This document shows, piece by piece, positions 27,194 through 34,922 of a stretch of DNA of 64,000 nucleotides. Under the pieces are notes generated by a model. That model had not been told where the DNA came from and searched no databases. It worked only from the letters and a program-made list of their open reading frames with translations. Location of the stretch: NCBI RefSeq assembly GCF_003334315.1, contig NZ_QOWR01000015.1; one strand, written 5' to 3'. How positions within the stretch are numbered: position 1 is the stretch's first letter; every line of letters starts with the position of its first letter. The position numbers and the translations under genes were made by a program. This DNA is from Escherichia coli. Lineage in GTDB: Bacteria; Pseudomonadota; Gammaproteobacteria; Enterobacterales; Enterobacteriaceae.

Positions 27194-28174
27194 ATGGCTT
27201 TTACACCTTTTCCTCCCCGTCAGCCTACGGCTTCTGCCCGTTTACCGCTGACGCTGATGACGCTTGATGACTGGGCGCTTGCCACCATTACTGGCGCGGA
27301 CAGCGAAAAATATATGCAGGGTCAGGTGACAGCAGATGTCAGCCAGATGGCAGAAGATCAGCACCTGCTCGCCGCCCATTGCGACGCCAAAGGTAAAATG
27401 TGGAGCAATTTACGTCTGTTCCGCGACGGCGATGGCTTTGCATGGATTGAACGGCGCAGCGTGCGTGAACCGCAGCTGACTGAACTGAAAAAATATGCGG
27501 TATTCTCTAAAGTGACCATCGCGCCAGACGACGAGCGTGTGCTGCTTGGTGTTGCCGGTTTTCAGGCGCGCGCCGCGCTGGCAAATCTCTTTAGCGAACT
27601 GCCTTCGAAAGAAAAACAGGTAGTCAAAGAAGGCGCGACCACTTTGCTATGGTTTGAACACCCGGCAGAACGTTTCCTGATCGTAACCGATGAAGCTACT
27701 GCTAATATGCTGACCGATAAACTGCGCGGTGAAGCGGAACTGAACAATAGCCAACAGTGGCTGGCATTAAACATTGAAGCGGGTTTCCCGGTGATTGATG
27801 CCGCCAACAGCGGGCAGTTTATCCCACAGGCGACCAATCTCCAGGCGCTGGGCGGTATCAGCTTTAAGAAAGGCTGTTATACCGGACAAGAGATGGTGGC
27901 GCGAGCAAAATTCCGTGGTGCCAATAAACGTGCGCTCTGGTTGCTGGCAGGTAGCGCCAGCCGACTGCCGGAAGCTGGTGAAGACTTAGAGCTGAAAATG
28001 GGCGAGAACTGGCGTCGTACCGGTACGGTGCTGGCTGCGGTAAAACTGGAAGATGGTCAGGTCGTGGTACAGGTCGTCATGAATAACGATATGGAACCGG
28101 ATAGCATCTTCCGCGTACGCGACGATGCGAATACATTGCATATCGAGCCGCTGCCGTATTCGCTCGAAGAGTAA
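27194..28174 (+). CDS. ygfZ: Folate-binding tRNA-modification protein YgfZ
   Basis: 326-aa ORF, GcvT-like fold family. Confidence 0.9.
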
Positions 28175-28179
28175 ATCTC

Positions 28180-28365
28180 TTTATCGCATCAGGCATTTAT
28201 CGCCTGATGCGACGCTGGCGCGTCTTATCATGTCTGGGATTTGATGCCTTTATCACAACAGGGACGAGGCCCGTAGATCGGATAAGGCGTTCACGCCGAA
28301 TCCGGCAGTTGTGCTCCGATGCCTGATGCGACGCTGGCGCGTCTTATCAGGCCTACAAAGGCATA
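28180..28365. repeat. REP/BIME cluster (three REP units)
   Basis: Two copies of GCCTGATGCGACGCTGGCGCGTCTTATCA (28202-28229 and 28321-28348) flank an inverted REP (CGGATAAGGCGTTCACGCCGAATCCGGC). Confidence 0.7.
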
Positions 28366-30994: not shown

Positions 30995-31020
30995 CCGGAT
31001 GCAATACTTGTTGCATCCGG
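30995..31020 (+). terminator. Strong hairpin after bglA (terminator-like; T-tract not immediately adjacent)
   Basis: Perfect 10-bp stem CCGGATGCAA / TTGCATCCGG starting 13 nt after the bglA stop; T-rich stretch follows about 10 nt later. Confidence 0.4.
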
Positions 31021-31038
31021 TCAGACAACTTCCCTGTT

Positions 31039-31782
31039 TTATTTCCCGCCCGCCAAATCGATAAAACTTCCCGTGACGTAAGAGGCTTTATCACTTAGTA
31101 GCCAGACAATGGCCTGCGCGACCTCTTCTGCCTGTCCACCACGCTGCATGGGGATGTTCGACTTAACGCGATCGACGCGTCCAGGCTCGCCGCCGCTGGC
31201 GTGCATTTCGGTATAAATAAACCCTGGCCGCACGCAGTTAACGCGGATCCCCTGCGCGGCGACTTCCAGCGATAGTCCGGTGGTTAACGTATCAATCGCC
31301 CCTTTCGATGCCGCGTAATCAACATATTCCCCTGGCGAACCCAACCGTGAGGCCACCGAAGAGACATTGACGATAGCGCCGCCACTGCCACCATTTTTAA
31401 GCGCCATGCGTTTTACCGCCTCGCGGCAGCAGAGAAAATATCCCGTCACGTTGGTGGAAAGTACTCGGTTGATTCGCTCTGCGGTAAGGTTTTCAACGGT
31501 GCACTGGGTAAACAAGATCCCGGCGTTATTGACCAGCGCTGCTAGCGGTTCATCGTGCTGATCGATTGCTGTAAACATTGCGATGACCTGATTTTCGTCG
31601 CTGATATCCGCCTGGAGCACGAATGCTTTGCCACCGGCTTGCGTTATTAAGTTCATCACTTCCTGCGCCGCGTGGAGGTTTTGCTGATAATTAACCGCCA
31701 CCGTATACCCTTCTTGCGCCAACAGTAATGCAGTTGCCCGCCCGATGCCGCGACTGCCACCAGTCACAAGTGCTATAGCCAT
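31039..31782 (-). CDS. ygfF: Short-chain dehydrogenase/reductase (YgfF)
   Basis: 247-aa ORF with TGGSRGIG cofactor-binding motif and the SDR catalytic Y-x3-K motif. Confidence 0.85.
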   Translation of the reverse strand: MAIALVTGGSRGIGRATALLLAQEGYTVAVNYQQNLHAAQEVMNLITQAGGKAFVLQADISDENQVIAMFTAIDQHDEPLAALVNNAGILFTQCTVENLTAERINRVLSTNVTGYFLCCREAVKRMALKNGGSGGAIVNVSSVASRLGSPGEYVDYAASKGAIDTLTTGLSLEVAAQGIRVNCVRPGFIYTEMHASGGEPGRVDRVKSNIPMQRGGQAEEVAQAIVWLLSDKASYVTGSFIDLAGGK

Positions 31783-31865
31783 TTGTTTTTCCGAGAAAAA
31801 TTAATTCGTTGACGTATCTTTGAGATTGCTAACAAACTGGCTCAATCTTCAATGTTGGCACGCTT

Positions 31866-31972
31866 TTCCCCCTCGCCCTTTCAGGGAGAGGGCCGGGGTG
31901 AGGGTAAATATTCGCGCCAGTGCCGGCCTGTTCCCCTCACCCTAACCCTCTCCCCAAAGGGGCGAGGGGACT
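31866..31972. repeat. GC-rich imperfect palindromic intergenic repeat (about 105 bp)
   Basis: Arms CCCCTCGCC / GGCGAGGGG, GGGAGAGGG / CCCTCTCC and GGGGTGAGGG / CCCCTCACCC pair across a central spacer. Confidence 0.5.
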
Positions 31973-32003
31973 GTCTGAGCACTTTTGTACTTTGTCATCT
32001 GAC

Positions 32004-32026
32004 TAAAAAGGCGCCGAAGCGCCTTT
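32004..32026 (-). terminator. Intrinsic terminator after gcvP
   Basis: Minus-strand hairpin GGCGC-UUCG-GCGCC followed by UUUUU; about 25 nt after the gcvP stop. Confidence 0.55.
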
Positions 32027-32048
32027 AGAAAATAGTCGAATCAGTGAA

Positions 32049-34922
32049 TTACTGGTATTCGCTAATCGGTACGCAGGAGCAGAACAGGTTACGGTCGCCG
32101 TAAACATCATCCAGACGTTTCACTGTCGGCCAGTATTTGTCTGCCACACCTGCCGGGAATACCGCAACTTCACGGCTGTACGGATGCGCCCACTCGGCGA
32201 CCAGTTCGCTCTGAATGTGCGGCGCGTTCACCAGCGGGTTATCTTCCAGCGGCCAGACACCGGCTTTCACCTGGTCAATTTCTGCGCGGATAGCCAGCAT
32301 CGCGTCGATAAAGCGATCCAGTTCCACTTTGCTTTCAGATTCAGTCGGTTCAACCATCAGCGTACCCGCCACCGGGAACGACATCGTCGGCGCGTGGAAA
32401 CCGTAGTCGATCAGGCGCTTGGCAATATCCAGCTCGCTGATGCCGGTTTCTTCTTTCAGCGGGCGAATATCGAGAATACATTCGTGCGCCACGCGACCGT
32501 CGCGACCGGTATACAGCACCGGGAAGGCATCCTGCAGGCGGCTGGCAATATAGTTGGCGTTGAGGATTGCCACCTGGCTTGCTTTTTTCAGCCCTTCTGC
32601 GCCCATCATGCGGATGTACATCCAGCTGATTGGCAGGATAGAGGCGCTACCGAACGGTGCCGCAGAAACCGCACCCTGACGGGTTAACATGCCTTCGATT
32701 TGCACCACGCTATGACCCGGTACAAACGGTGCCAAATGCGCTTTCACGCCGATCGGTCCCATACCCGGACCACCACCGCCGTGCGGAATGCAGAAAGTTT
32801 TATGTAGGTTAAGGTGTGAAACGTCCGCACCAATAAAGCCCGGCGAGGTGATGCCAACCTGGGCGTTCATGTTCGCGCCATCAAGGTAAACCTGACCGCC
32901 GAACTGATGCACGACTTCACACACTTCACGGATCGTTTCTTCATACACGCCGTGGGTAGAAGGATAAGTCACCATGATACAGGAGAGGTTATCGCCCGCC
33001 TGTTCCGCTTTCGCGCGCAGATCAGTCAGATCGATGTTGCCGTTTTTATCACACGCCACAACCACCACCTGCATTCCTGCCATATGTGCAGAAGCGGGGT
33101 TAGTTCCGTGCGCAGAAGCCGGGATCAGGCAGATATCGCGATGCCCTTCGTTGCGGCTTTCATGATAATGACGAATCGCCAGCAGGCCCGCGTATTCGCC
33201 CTGTGCGCCAGAGTTCGGCTGCATACAAACGGCGTCGTAACCGGTCAGTTTCACCAGCCAGTCAGCCAGCTGCGCAATCATCTGCTGATAACCTTCGGCC
33301 TGCTCCGGCGGGCAGAACGGGTGCAGTTCGGCAAATTCCGGCCAGGTGATTGGGATCATCTCGGCGGCGGCGTTCAGTTTCATGGTGCAGGAACCCAGCG
33401 GGATCATCGCCTGATTCAGCGCCAGATCTTTACGCTCCAGCGAGTGCATATAGCGCATCATTTCGGTTTCGCTGTGGTAGCGATTAAACACCGGATGGGT
33501 GAGGATTTCGTCGTCGCGCAGCATCGCAGGCTGGATAGAGCGGCTGTCGTGAGCCACGTCTTTGTCCAGCGTGTCGATGTCCAGGCCGTGGTTATCGCCC
33601 AGCAGCACGTTGAAAAGCTGCATTACGTTTTCACGCGTGGTTGTTTCATCAAGGGTGATCCCAACCGCGTTCAGAATATCGCTACGCAGGTTGATTTCAG
33701 CCGCTTCGGCACGCGTCAGTACGCCCGCTTTGTCGGCCACTTCCACACACAAGGTGTCGAAATAGTGCGCATGGCGCAGTTTCAGACCTTTTTGTTGCAG
33801 GCCCGCCGCCAGGATATCGGTCAGACGGTGAATGCGGTTAGCGATACGTTTCAGGCCAACCGGGCCGTGATAAACGGCATACAGGCTGGCGATGTTTGCC
33901 AGCAGTACCTGGGAAGTACAAATGTTGGAGTTCGCTTTCTCACGGCGGATATGTTGCTCGCGAGTCTGCATCGCCATGCGCAGCGCGGTATTGCCAGCTG
34001 CATCTTTCGATACACCGATAATACGGCCCGGCATTGAGCGTTTGTATTCATCTTTCGCCGCAAAGAATGCCGCGTGTGGGCCACCGTAGCCCATCGGCAC
34101 GCCGAAGCGTTGCGCCGAACCAAAAACAATATCCGCGCCCTGTTTACCCGGCGCAGTTAACAGCACCAGCGCCATAATATCGGCGGCAACGCTGACCACA
34201 ATTTTGCGTGATTTCAGTTCGCTAATAAGCGCAGTGTAGTCGTGAATTTCACCGGTAGTGCCTACCTGCTGTAACAGCACGCCGAAGACGTCCTGATGGT
34301 CGAGCACTTTTTGCGCGTCATCGACAATCACTTCAAAACCAAAGGTTTCGGCACGAGTACGGACCACATCCAGCGTTTGCGGATGCACATCGGAAGCCAC
34401 GAAGAAGCGGTTGGCATTTTTCAGTTTGCTGACGCGTTTCGCCATCGCCATTGCTTCGGCGGCAGCGGTGGCCTCGTCCAGAAGAGAAGCAGAGGCCATA
34501 TCCAGTCCAGTCAAATCCAGCGTTACCTGCTGGAAGTTGAGCAGTGCTTCAAGGCGGCCCTGGGAGACTTCAGGTTGATACGGAGTGTACGCGGTATACC
34601 AGCCCGGATTTTCCAGCATGTTACGCAGGATAACCGGCGGTAGCTGCACGGCGGTGTAACCCATGCCGATGTAAGACGTGAAGCGTTTATTGCGACTGGC
34701 AATAGCCTTGAGTTCTGCCAGTGCGGCGTATTCGGTCGCCGGTGCGCCAACCTGCGGTGGTGTCGCAAGTTGAATATCTTTCGGCACAATCTGGCCGGTC
34801 AGCGCGTTTAACGATTGTGCACCAACGGCATTCAGCATTTCTTGCTGTTGCGCGGCGTCCGGTCCGATATGGCGTTCAATAAAAGCGCCGCTGTTTTCAA
34901 GCTGGCTTAACGTCTGTGTCAT
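32049..34922 (-). CDS. gcvP: Glycine dehydrogenase (decarboxylating), glycine cleavage P protein
   Basis: 957-aa ORF; PLP-dependent P-protein sequence. Confidence 0.95.

Follow-up and report, generated by a model that had tools for sequence, protein, structure and literature searches.

A single family of short structured repeats in Escherichia coli has been described four times, and bears the names BoxC (Bachellier et al., 1990s), PIT (Hoyne and Maher 2000, 2002), TMECO (PMC4666352) and HPG1/HPG2 (PMC5100583). The TMECO paper treats its motif as the same as the BoxC known from the 1990s and the PIT elements described by Hoyne and Maher (PMC4666352), and BoxC was recovered as an E. coli stem-loop family as well (Petrillo et al. 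2008). Isolated type A mm and type B mm strands exhibit melting temperatures of 70-74 degrees C and triplex-type NMR signatures, according to CD, NMR and melting data; duplex alone is seen once the complementary strand is added, and DMS footprinting in vivo revealed no protection and detected no stable triplex (PMC4666352). A K+/Mg2+-dependent switch between G-quadruplex and hairpin, accompanied by an ion-dependent change in CD, is reported by Kaplan et al. (PMC5100583). Earlier tests of PIT elements found neither promoter nor terminator activity, and RNA polymerase was unaffected (via PMC4666352). Loci bearing the motif vary more between strains than control loci, no functional class was found among the genes neighbouring it, and Enterobacter asburiae is the published record holder for TMECO copies (PMC4666352). 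The motif is reported to be missing from Salmonella (PMC4666352), and little conservation of it is reported in Salmonella and Yersinia (PMC5100583).

The palindrome found between ygfF and gcvP is a known member of this family, since a BoxC/PIT/TMECO pair is catalogued at exactly these K-12 coordinates. More specifically, its two halves are TMECO no. 10 (CCCTCGCCCTTTCAGGGAGAGGGCCGGGGTGAGGGT, K-12 3,045,989-3,046,024, sense, type B mm) and TMECO no. 11 (K-12 3,046,087-3,046,052, antisense, type A mm) in Table 1 of Holder et al. 2015 (PMC4666352), and they are also HPGQ 32 and HPGQ 33, the G-quadruplex motifs placed between ygfF and gcvP by Kaplan et al. 2016 (PMC5100583). Recomputation of the Table 1 entries from the K-12 record revealed no mismatch with the published K-12 coordinates. 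With respect to sequence, K-12 coordinates, inverted pairing of type A with type B and intergenic site, the element itself shows no difference from BoxC/PIT/TMECO/HPG as described. The existing descriptions of the family, and the tabulation of this very copy in two papers, were missed by the initial annotation. As a sequence feature the palindrome is ordinary, to be masked or annotated as BoxC and not treated as a discovery. What is not found in those papers is the composite of about 180 bp to which the pair belongs, the alternation of this composite with BIMEs in one slot, and a link to DUF559 genes.

Within the window, which is the whole 64-kb stretch of E. coli DNA that was analysed, the palindrome occupies 31866-31972 and is intergenic, with the start of ygfF (31782, minus strand) on one side and the stop of gcvP (32049) on the other. 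According to the ORF list and the K-12 annotation both genes lie on the minus strand, ygfF (an SDR oxidoreductase) at 31039-31782 and gcvP at 32049-34922. Gene order agrees with that of E. coli K-12 MG1655 along the window, but the DNA is not K-12; it differs by 51 SNPs in 10 kb, none of which falls within 31592-32672. An inverted-repeat search of the window located two arms of 39 nt each (31869-31907 and 31931-31969) that are 82% complementary and 23 nt apart, and the GC content of the palindrome is 65%, compared with 52% for the whole window. The single-stranded DNA of 31860-31975 folds with -35.7 kcal/mol (z = -5.15) and its minus-strand RNA with -76.6 kcal/mol (z = -7.3), values that none of 200 shuffles equalled in either case. 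The GC-rich imperfect palindrome of the initial annotation is thus real. Its three sets of arms are all present, but they represent in fact two inverted copies of one three-block motif. Likewise, the cruciform or hairpin proposed for it agrees with a fold far better than that of shuffled sequences, whereas the published biophysics favours an intrastrand triplex or a G-quadruplex/hairpin switch and not a cruciform alone.

The three-block motif is the BoxC consensus, 5'-CCCTCNCCC-N3-6-GGGNGAGGG-N3-GGGNGAGGG-3', to which both halves of the palindrome conform. The only strict consensus matches in the 64 kb are those at 31870-31904 (+) and 31934-31968 (-). The left half, TMECO no. 10 (31870-31905, plus strand), reads CCCTCGCCC-TTTCA-GGGAGAGGG-CCG-GGGTGAGGG-T and is a type B motif with one mismatch and a CCG loop, while the right half, TMECO no. 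11 (31933-31968, minus strand), reads CCCTCGCCC-CTTTG-GGGAGAGGG-TTA-GGGTGAGGG-G and is a type A motif with one mismatch and a TTA loop; the pair thereby follows the rule of one A plus one B for inverted pairs. Between the two motifs lies a 27-nt spacer (AAATATTCGCGCCAGTGCCGGCCTGTT, 31906-31932) that is kept in five of six aligned pair copies from different loci. Each strand carries one G-quadruplex motif of the form (G3+N1-7)4, at 31884-31904 (+) and 31933-31955 (-), and these are the sole two in the window. On the complement of TMECO no. 10 the sequence CCC TCA CCC CGG CCC TCT CCC TGA reads P-S-P-R-P-S-P-stop (31905-31882, minus strand), and a minus-strand ORF of 33 aa (31881-31982) has the tail ...LPSPRPSP. 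The small ORFs inside the palindrome are taken as non-genes, and the PSPRPSP reading alone is considered informative.

The genome-wide repeat search for which the initial annotation had called reveals a dispersed family. A blastn search with the 107 bp against 5,426 complete E. coli genomes returned 83,492 related places in 5,409 of them, with a median of 17 places per genome (range 1-31); the 64-kb window contains the BoxC pair once. The core motif supposedly shared with the element at 34960-35030 did not hold up, as the two have only an 8-mer (GGGTGAGG/CCTCACCC) in common and the element exhibits no blast similarity to the BoxC pair. This 8-mer occurs five times in the window against 1.16 occurrences expected. 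The element at 34960-35030 is single-copy, is present in all 5,426 E. coli genomes, and needs 6-7 substitutions per half to fit the BoxC template in the '+ -' layout, a tolerance that lets unrelated sites in the window match too. On these grounds its membership in the BoxC family is not demonstrable, and it may at most be an ancient, degenerate BoxC pair. The gcvH-gcvP spacer in which it lies (34958-35035) contains three adjacent hairpins (z = -5.4) and is inside the gcvTHP transcript. A further lookalike is found at 6382-6415, where CCCTCTTCCCGCAGGGAAGAGGGTTAAATAAGGA combines a Y-R hairpin with a GGGTTA tail in the manner of a decayed BoxC half, seven substitutions from the template.

As the initial annotation held, the palindrome is distinct from canonical REP, because the REP consensus (GCCTGATGCG...CTTATCAGGCCTAC) is missing from 31822-32003. 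The Rfam model for the REP-derived naRNA4 finds a match at 28276-28353 and none at the palindrome. The site of that match belongs to a BIME of three REP units between ygfZ and trhA (28161-28353), and it scores 75 bits for naRNA4/CssrE against a gathering score of 59.5; strain p11A has about 120 bp less in the ygfZ-trhA spacer. An Rfam search in E-value mode over 28-38 kb yielded for the palindrome microRNA-like matches only, at 24-34 bits against gathering scores of 71-97, which were rejected as generic artefacts of long hairpins.

The palindrome had also been placed between the gcvP terminator and the promoter region of ygfF. It does lie downstream of the terminator hairpin and upstream of ygfF, but no sigma-70-like promoter was detected in 31700-32100. 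The same scan of 31700-32100 reported no intrinsic terminator either, and its empty result carries little weight because it overlooked the evident hairpin of gcvP, which probably escaped the consensus through extension of its stem into the A/T run. This intrinsic-terminator-like hairpin, AAAGGCGC-TTCG-GCGCCTTT followed by TTTTT (32005-32026, minus strand; inverted repeat GGCGC-TTCG-GCGCC), is outside the repeat and marks the insertion point. After the long hairpin of the palindrome comes GGGGGAAAAGCG on the minus strand and ACTGTCTG on the plus strand; it has no T-run and does not have the form of an intrinsic terminator.

The sequence that has been copied among loci is larger than the pair. 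Megablast with 31650-32150 matched 31819-31999 of the window at 87-88% identity elsewhere in other strains, with 641 genomes matching at gldA-yijF and 65 at yggN-yggL. When these copies are aligned with three K-12 pairs, the 27-nt spacer and the flanks are both conserved. The copied unit is therefore a composite of about 180 bp, at roughly 31822-32003. Its left flank (31822-31869; GAGATTGCTAACAAACTGGCTCAATC...GGCACGCTTTTCC) accompanies the pair at 87-88% identity at gldA-yijF and yggN-yggL and includes an outer frame, TTGCTAACAAA, that is homologous to the flank of a BIME allele at the same locus in cryptic-clade Escherichia. The right flank (31969-32003; GACTGTCTGAGCACTTTTGTACTTTGTCATCTG), recognized by alignment, includes the frame GTACTTTGTCATC and a one-mismatch match to GCACTTTGTCATC at 31987-31999, and its end is no more than 2 bp from the breakpoint (32004/32005) of a presence/absence polymorphism of ygfF plus BoxC. 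A palindrome or terminal inverted repeats spanning the whole 180-bp composite were considered and rejected, as there is no convincing pairing past the 39-nt arms.

Comparison with related genera is revealing of how the composite arrived. Only 60-71 bp separate gcvP from ygfF in K. aerogenes and Pseudescherichia, and this spacer contains the AAAGGCGC-N4-GCGCCTTT hairpin. In K. aerogenes the terminator hairpin leads directly into the ribosome-binding region of ygfF, which starts about 20 nt past the terminator. Because the spacer is this short in K. aerogenes and Pseudescherichia, the adjacency of ygfF and gcvP is ancestral, and about 210 bp were gained in Escherichia right after the terminator. 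It was thus in the Escherichia lineage that the composite came to lie in the gcvP-ygfF spacer, immediately past the conserved terminator of gcvP. In cryptic-clade Escherichia (GCA_004323655.1) the spacer is 405 bp long and is made up of two tandem units, each consisting of terminator hairpin, frame, BIME and frame, and then a third hairpin. The gcvP terminator hairpin is hence found three times in this genome (locus L133, 1118-1490), with the two tandem BIME units between the copies. The flanks of the BoxC composite can be aligned with the outer frames of the cryptic-clade allele (GATGNCAAA ... TTTGTNANCAAT) and with its far hairpin. To judge from the sequence, it looks as though insertion in cryptic-clade Escherichia copied about 20 bp of the terminator, leaving a long target duplication. 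At the far end of the insertion in the window, 31796-31821 (AAAGATACGTCAACGAATTAATTTTT, minus strand) aligns with the intact third hairpin copy of the cryptic-clade allele (AAAGGCGCTTTGGCGTCTTTATTTTTT) and is a probable decayed second copy of the gcvP terminator hairpin. The possible long target duplication would then be intact in the cryptic-clade allele and decayed in the window. No short target-site duplication was identified at gldA-yijF or yggN-yggL.

At these latter two loci K-12 possesses a BIME, with an L-like motif flanked by two REPs, in exactly the slot of the BoxC composite. The BoxC composite and BIME/REP are alternative occupants of one slot at three loci, gcvP-ygfF, gldA-yijF and yggN-yggL, as seen in alignments of 31822-32003 of the window, of L004 (3001-3190) with L130, of L005 (3001-3190) with L131, and of L133 (1120-1480). 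Outer frames (GATGACAAA ... TTTGTYATC) are shared by the two kinds of occupant at two of the three slots.

The gcvP-ygfF locus has also undergone loss. While 3,026 of the 5,426 E. coli genomes keep the K-12 arrangement, about 2,400 (44%), among them B2-type strains and others such as p11A, are without window 31002-32004, which comprises ygfF and the composite; ygfF is thus present or absent jointly with the repeat. In p11A and like strains about 100 bp with a REP-like remnant join bglA to the gcvP terminator. The breakpoint at 32004/32005 is the outer edge of the composite, against the terminator. In local terms, the insertion puts a distance between ygfF and the gcvP terminator, and its site is prone to deletion.

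Evidence of a candidate partner for the repeat came from outside the enterobacteria. The matches listed from a consensus scan of species-representative genomes span four genomes, and show the breadth of the motif and not its distribution; among them are more than 100 loci in Mitsuaria chitosanitabida, the remainder being in Methylomirabilota, Contendobacter and one unclassified genome bin. Three 9-mers of the motif are kept across these four genomes, and the loops and flanks vary. In Mitsuaria chitosanitabida (L018-L124), 28 of 34 close pairs are divergent ('- +') and 15-272 nt apart, the opposite of the '+ -' layout of E. coli. A search for ORFs between motifs revealed a DUF559 protein of 139 aa in Mitsuaria, together with a paralogue in the same arrangement. 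The DUF559 protein of K-12 is YcjD (NCBIfam NF007294; nearest solved structure 3HRL), which is about 50% identical to the Mitsuaria proteins with the acidic and histidine residues invariant. The literature predicts YcjD to be a PD-(D/E)XK nuclease of the Vsr-like kind and places it together with Vsr and the homing endonuclease of a group I intron; DUF559 is grouped with I-Bth0305I, a Vsr-like PD-(D/E)XK homing endonuclease (PMC3424549).

The association was tested on 80 metagenomic loci that were picked by DUF559 peptide patterns only, the motif playing no part in their choice. The strict motif is present at 27 of the 80 loci and the relaxed motif (three substitutions or fewer) at 59; 25 of the 80 are without a motif. 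Motif density reaches 1.92/kb within 250 bp of the DUF559 gene compared with 0.08/kb further off, and five shuffled replicates gave no matches. The motifs are oriented as well as close. Upstream, the motif closest to the gene is '+' in 39 of 42 loci, with its end 1-127 bp ahead of the ORF; downstream, the closest one is '-' in 43 of 48 and usually starts 1-22 nt before the end of the protein match; longer layouts, '-+ ORF -' and '-+ ORF -+', are frequent. No conserved leader was found between the upstream motif and the DUF559 start codon. Motifs stand beside DUF559 genes in Sinorhizobium meliloti (perfect motifs), Azospirillum, Sphingomonas, Neisseria gonorrhoeae, Deinococcus proteolyticus and a Klebsiella plasmid, and the '+ ORF -' pattern recurs also in Mitsuaria, E. 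asburiae and at E. coli ycjD (DUF559 loci L136-L227). The DUF559 locus of Picosynechococcus has no motif and that of Synechocystis has degenerate motifs only. Across many phyla, BoxC motifs bracket YcjD-like DUF559 (Vsr-fold) genes at a fixed polarity: '+' motif, ORF, '-' motif.

In enterobacteria the relationship is closer still, for the DUF559 ORF ends inside the type-B motif. The ORF of Enterobacter asburiae closes with ...CAA CCC TCA CCC CGG CCC TCT CCC TGA, which is the type-B motif on the complement with the stop codon in the hairpin loop, and a type-A motif follows 11 nt later. The ycjD gene of K-12 (1,351,204-1,351,760; L135 1705-2261) has an ORF end, ...NRRSPSP*, that falls inside a degenerate BoxC, and in a 95%-identical relative the end is a complete motif. 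Beyond the gene K-12 has a second, incomplete copy of the ycjD 3' end, with TMECO no. 9 at a distance of 167 bp downstream. Tails encoded by BoxC (PSPRPSP, PSPQPSP, PSPWKGEGE) close 83 of the 120 nearest YcjD homologue clusters, and PSPRPSP-stop is common to the type-B half in the window and the usual C-terminus of enterobacterial DUF559 proteins. Among those best 120 clusters no Salmonella or Yersinia protein is named, which agrees with the reported absence of the motif there. This link is an association and not a mechanism. No paper tying DUF559 or YcjD to BoxC repeats was found in a searchable literature that is limited, and with prior publication elsewhere possible, the association is the one result here that may be new.

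The ycjD gene is missing from 2,048 of the 5,426 E. coli genomes (38%), O157 included, and O157 still contains about 13 BoxC places. A simple dependence of BoxC abundance on ycjD was rejected, as O157 and B2 strains without the gene keep their BoxC copies. Because E. coli strains lacking ycjD still carry about 13 BoxC places, a resident nuclease is not needed for keeping the repeats. In strains without ycjD (O157, ST131 and others) other DNA occupies the whole stretch that runs from sapF up to the outer limit of TMECO no. 9 (L135 query 1-837), and papers on the EefABC efflux operon that mention ycjD suggest that this operon may be what stands in its place.

Two comparisons looked for descent of a solo pair from a cassette, and neither supports it. 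The 27-nt spacer was considered as a remnant of a DUF559 ORF; one orientation gave p of about 0.075, and six spacers compared with three ORFs in two orientations gave p = 0.03-0.95 with no consistent position. A solo pair was likewise considered as derived from a cassette on the same contig (L177), where the similarity outside the motifs is weak and the derivation is not clear.

Several known systems resemble this arrangement in part. Like BoxC, the repeats of REP/BIME and REPIN-RAYT are short, structured and intergenic, and they often stand in inverted pairs that fold into one long hairpin; BIME shares with BoxC the very same slots. In REPIN-RAYT, as in BoxC, abundant repeats are found together with a single- or low-copy nuclease or transposase gene that is itself flanked by repeats. 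Unlike REP, however, BoxC has neither the REP consensus nor a GTAG tag, and its associated gene encodes a Vsr-fold PD-(D/E)XK nuclease (DUF559) where that of REPIN-RAYT encodes an IS200/IS605-type Y1 transposase. BoxC further differs from REPIN-RAYT in that one repeat overlaps the end of the ORF, and mobilisation of BoxC is an inference only. Free-standing genes for Vsr-like homing endonucleases (e.g. I-Bth0305I) resemble the DUF559 cassette in placing a small nuclease gene of the same structural group between the halves of a conserved sequence, with ORF-less versions elsewhere in the manner of filled and empty sites. The DUF559/BoxC arrangement differs from these in having no intron or intein context and, as its putative 'target', a multi-copy repeat in place of a single conserved gene. 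MITEs (Correia, ERIC/IRU, RUP) are similar to the BoxC composite in size (about 100-200 bp), terminal inverted repeats, intergenic position, variability among strains and co-transcription with neighbours. In contrast to MITEs, the composite has no identified target-site duplication and no known cognate transposase, and its internal sequence has no demonstrable derivation from the DUF559 gene.

These comparisons bear on the explanation favoured here. The inverted BoxC pair, as the core of the composite of about 180 bp, is probably a selfish, non-autonomous relative of the DUF559 cassette, and it appears to serve no dedicated host function between gcvP and ygfF. Such a relative might be either an ORF-less deletion derivative of the cassette or an empty target for it. 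These two forms are equally open, because the spacer is unlike the bodies of DUF559 ORFs and the solo pair is not clearly derived from a cassette. Spread would probably occur by recombination or gene conversion triggered by the nuclease. The folds available to separated strands (long hairpin, triplex, G-quadruplex) may be a local source of instability, and read-through RNA would carry a very stable hairpin from the pair. An extension of this explanation to the family as a whole is more tentative, with slightly less than an even chance of being correct. It holds that BoxC/PIT/TMECO may be the terminal and flanking repeats of a widespread selfish YcjD-like DUF559 (Vsr-fold) cassette, that inverted pairs may be ORF-less derivatives or empty homing targets, and that the nuclease might act on the structured repeat and drive its copying by recombination, much as in REPIN-RAYT though with an unrelated enzyme.

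Alternatively, the pair could act in RNA as a REP-like regulatory element of the host. In read-through transcripts from gcvP, or in a long ygfF leader, the hairpin might block exonucleases, terminate transcription a second time or insulate ygfF from gcvTHP. The two neighbouring genes are co-oriented, the very stable minus-strand fold between them (-76.6 kcal/mol, z = -7.3) is in the direction of transcription, and the insertion altered the coupling of gcvP and ygfF, because in Klebsiella ygfF begins about 20 nt past the terminator. Such a role is nonetheless unlikely, since the hairpin has no T-run, the scan of 31700-32100 gave no terminator- or promoter-like site, and the published PIT tests found neither of these activities and no effect on RNA polymerase. 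Furthermore, copies of the family are found in every context of gene orientation, including the divergent fepB-entC, and an unrelated BIME fills the slot in other strains.

Equally improbable is a switch in DNA structure that serves the cell by regulating neighbours or by adaptive variability, whether through the intrastrand triplex of Holder or the G-quadruplex/hairpin/duplex transitions of Kaplan. The conserved blocks that form these structures double as DUF559 coding sequence and flanks, and because of this their conservation is explained without a regulatory role. Each strand does bear one canonical (G3+N1-7)4 motif, the sole two in the window, and the published melting of type A mm and type B mm oligonucleotides at 70-74 degrees C, their triplex NMR signatures and the ion-dependent CD switch are as such a switch would predict. 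Opposed to these are the published findings of duplex only with the complementary strand, of no DMS protection in vivo and of no common functional class among neighbouring genes. The greater variability of motif loci than of controls in published comparisons, and the breakpoint at the edge of the element in the present locus, would suit adaptive variability too.

Lastly, a chance palindrome or locus-specific structure without relatives, the outcome that the initial annotation had named as refuting its claim, has nothing more in its favour than a single occurrence in the 64-kb window and is exceedingly improbable, because there are 83,492 related places in E. coli genomes and none of 200 shuffles folds as well, and the motif recurs outside E. 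coli, at more than 100 loci of Mitsuaria and in genome bins of Methylomirabilota and Contendobacter.

For about 30 years the BoxC family has gone without an explanation; a triplex, a G-quadruplex switch and 'adaptive instability' have been proposed, and no partner protein was found. Should the physical link with DUF559 genes be confirmed, BoxC would become a candidate substrate for E. coli YcjD and for the thousands of proteins annotated as 'endonuclease domain-containing proteins'. Confirmation would also provide a reason for the constant pairing of type A with type B and for the conserved 'loops', one of the two motifs being coding sequence that ends in a stop codon. The DUF559 cassette and its BoxC repeats would then constitute a second nuclease-plus-repeat system beside REP/RAYT.
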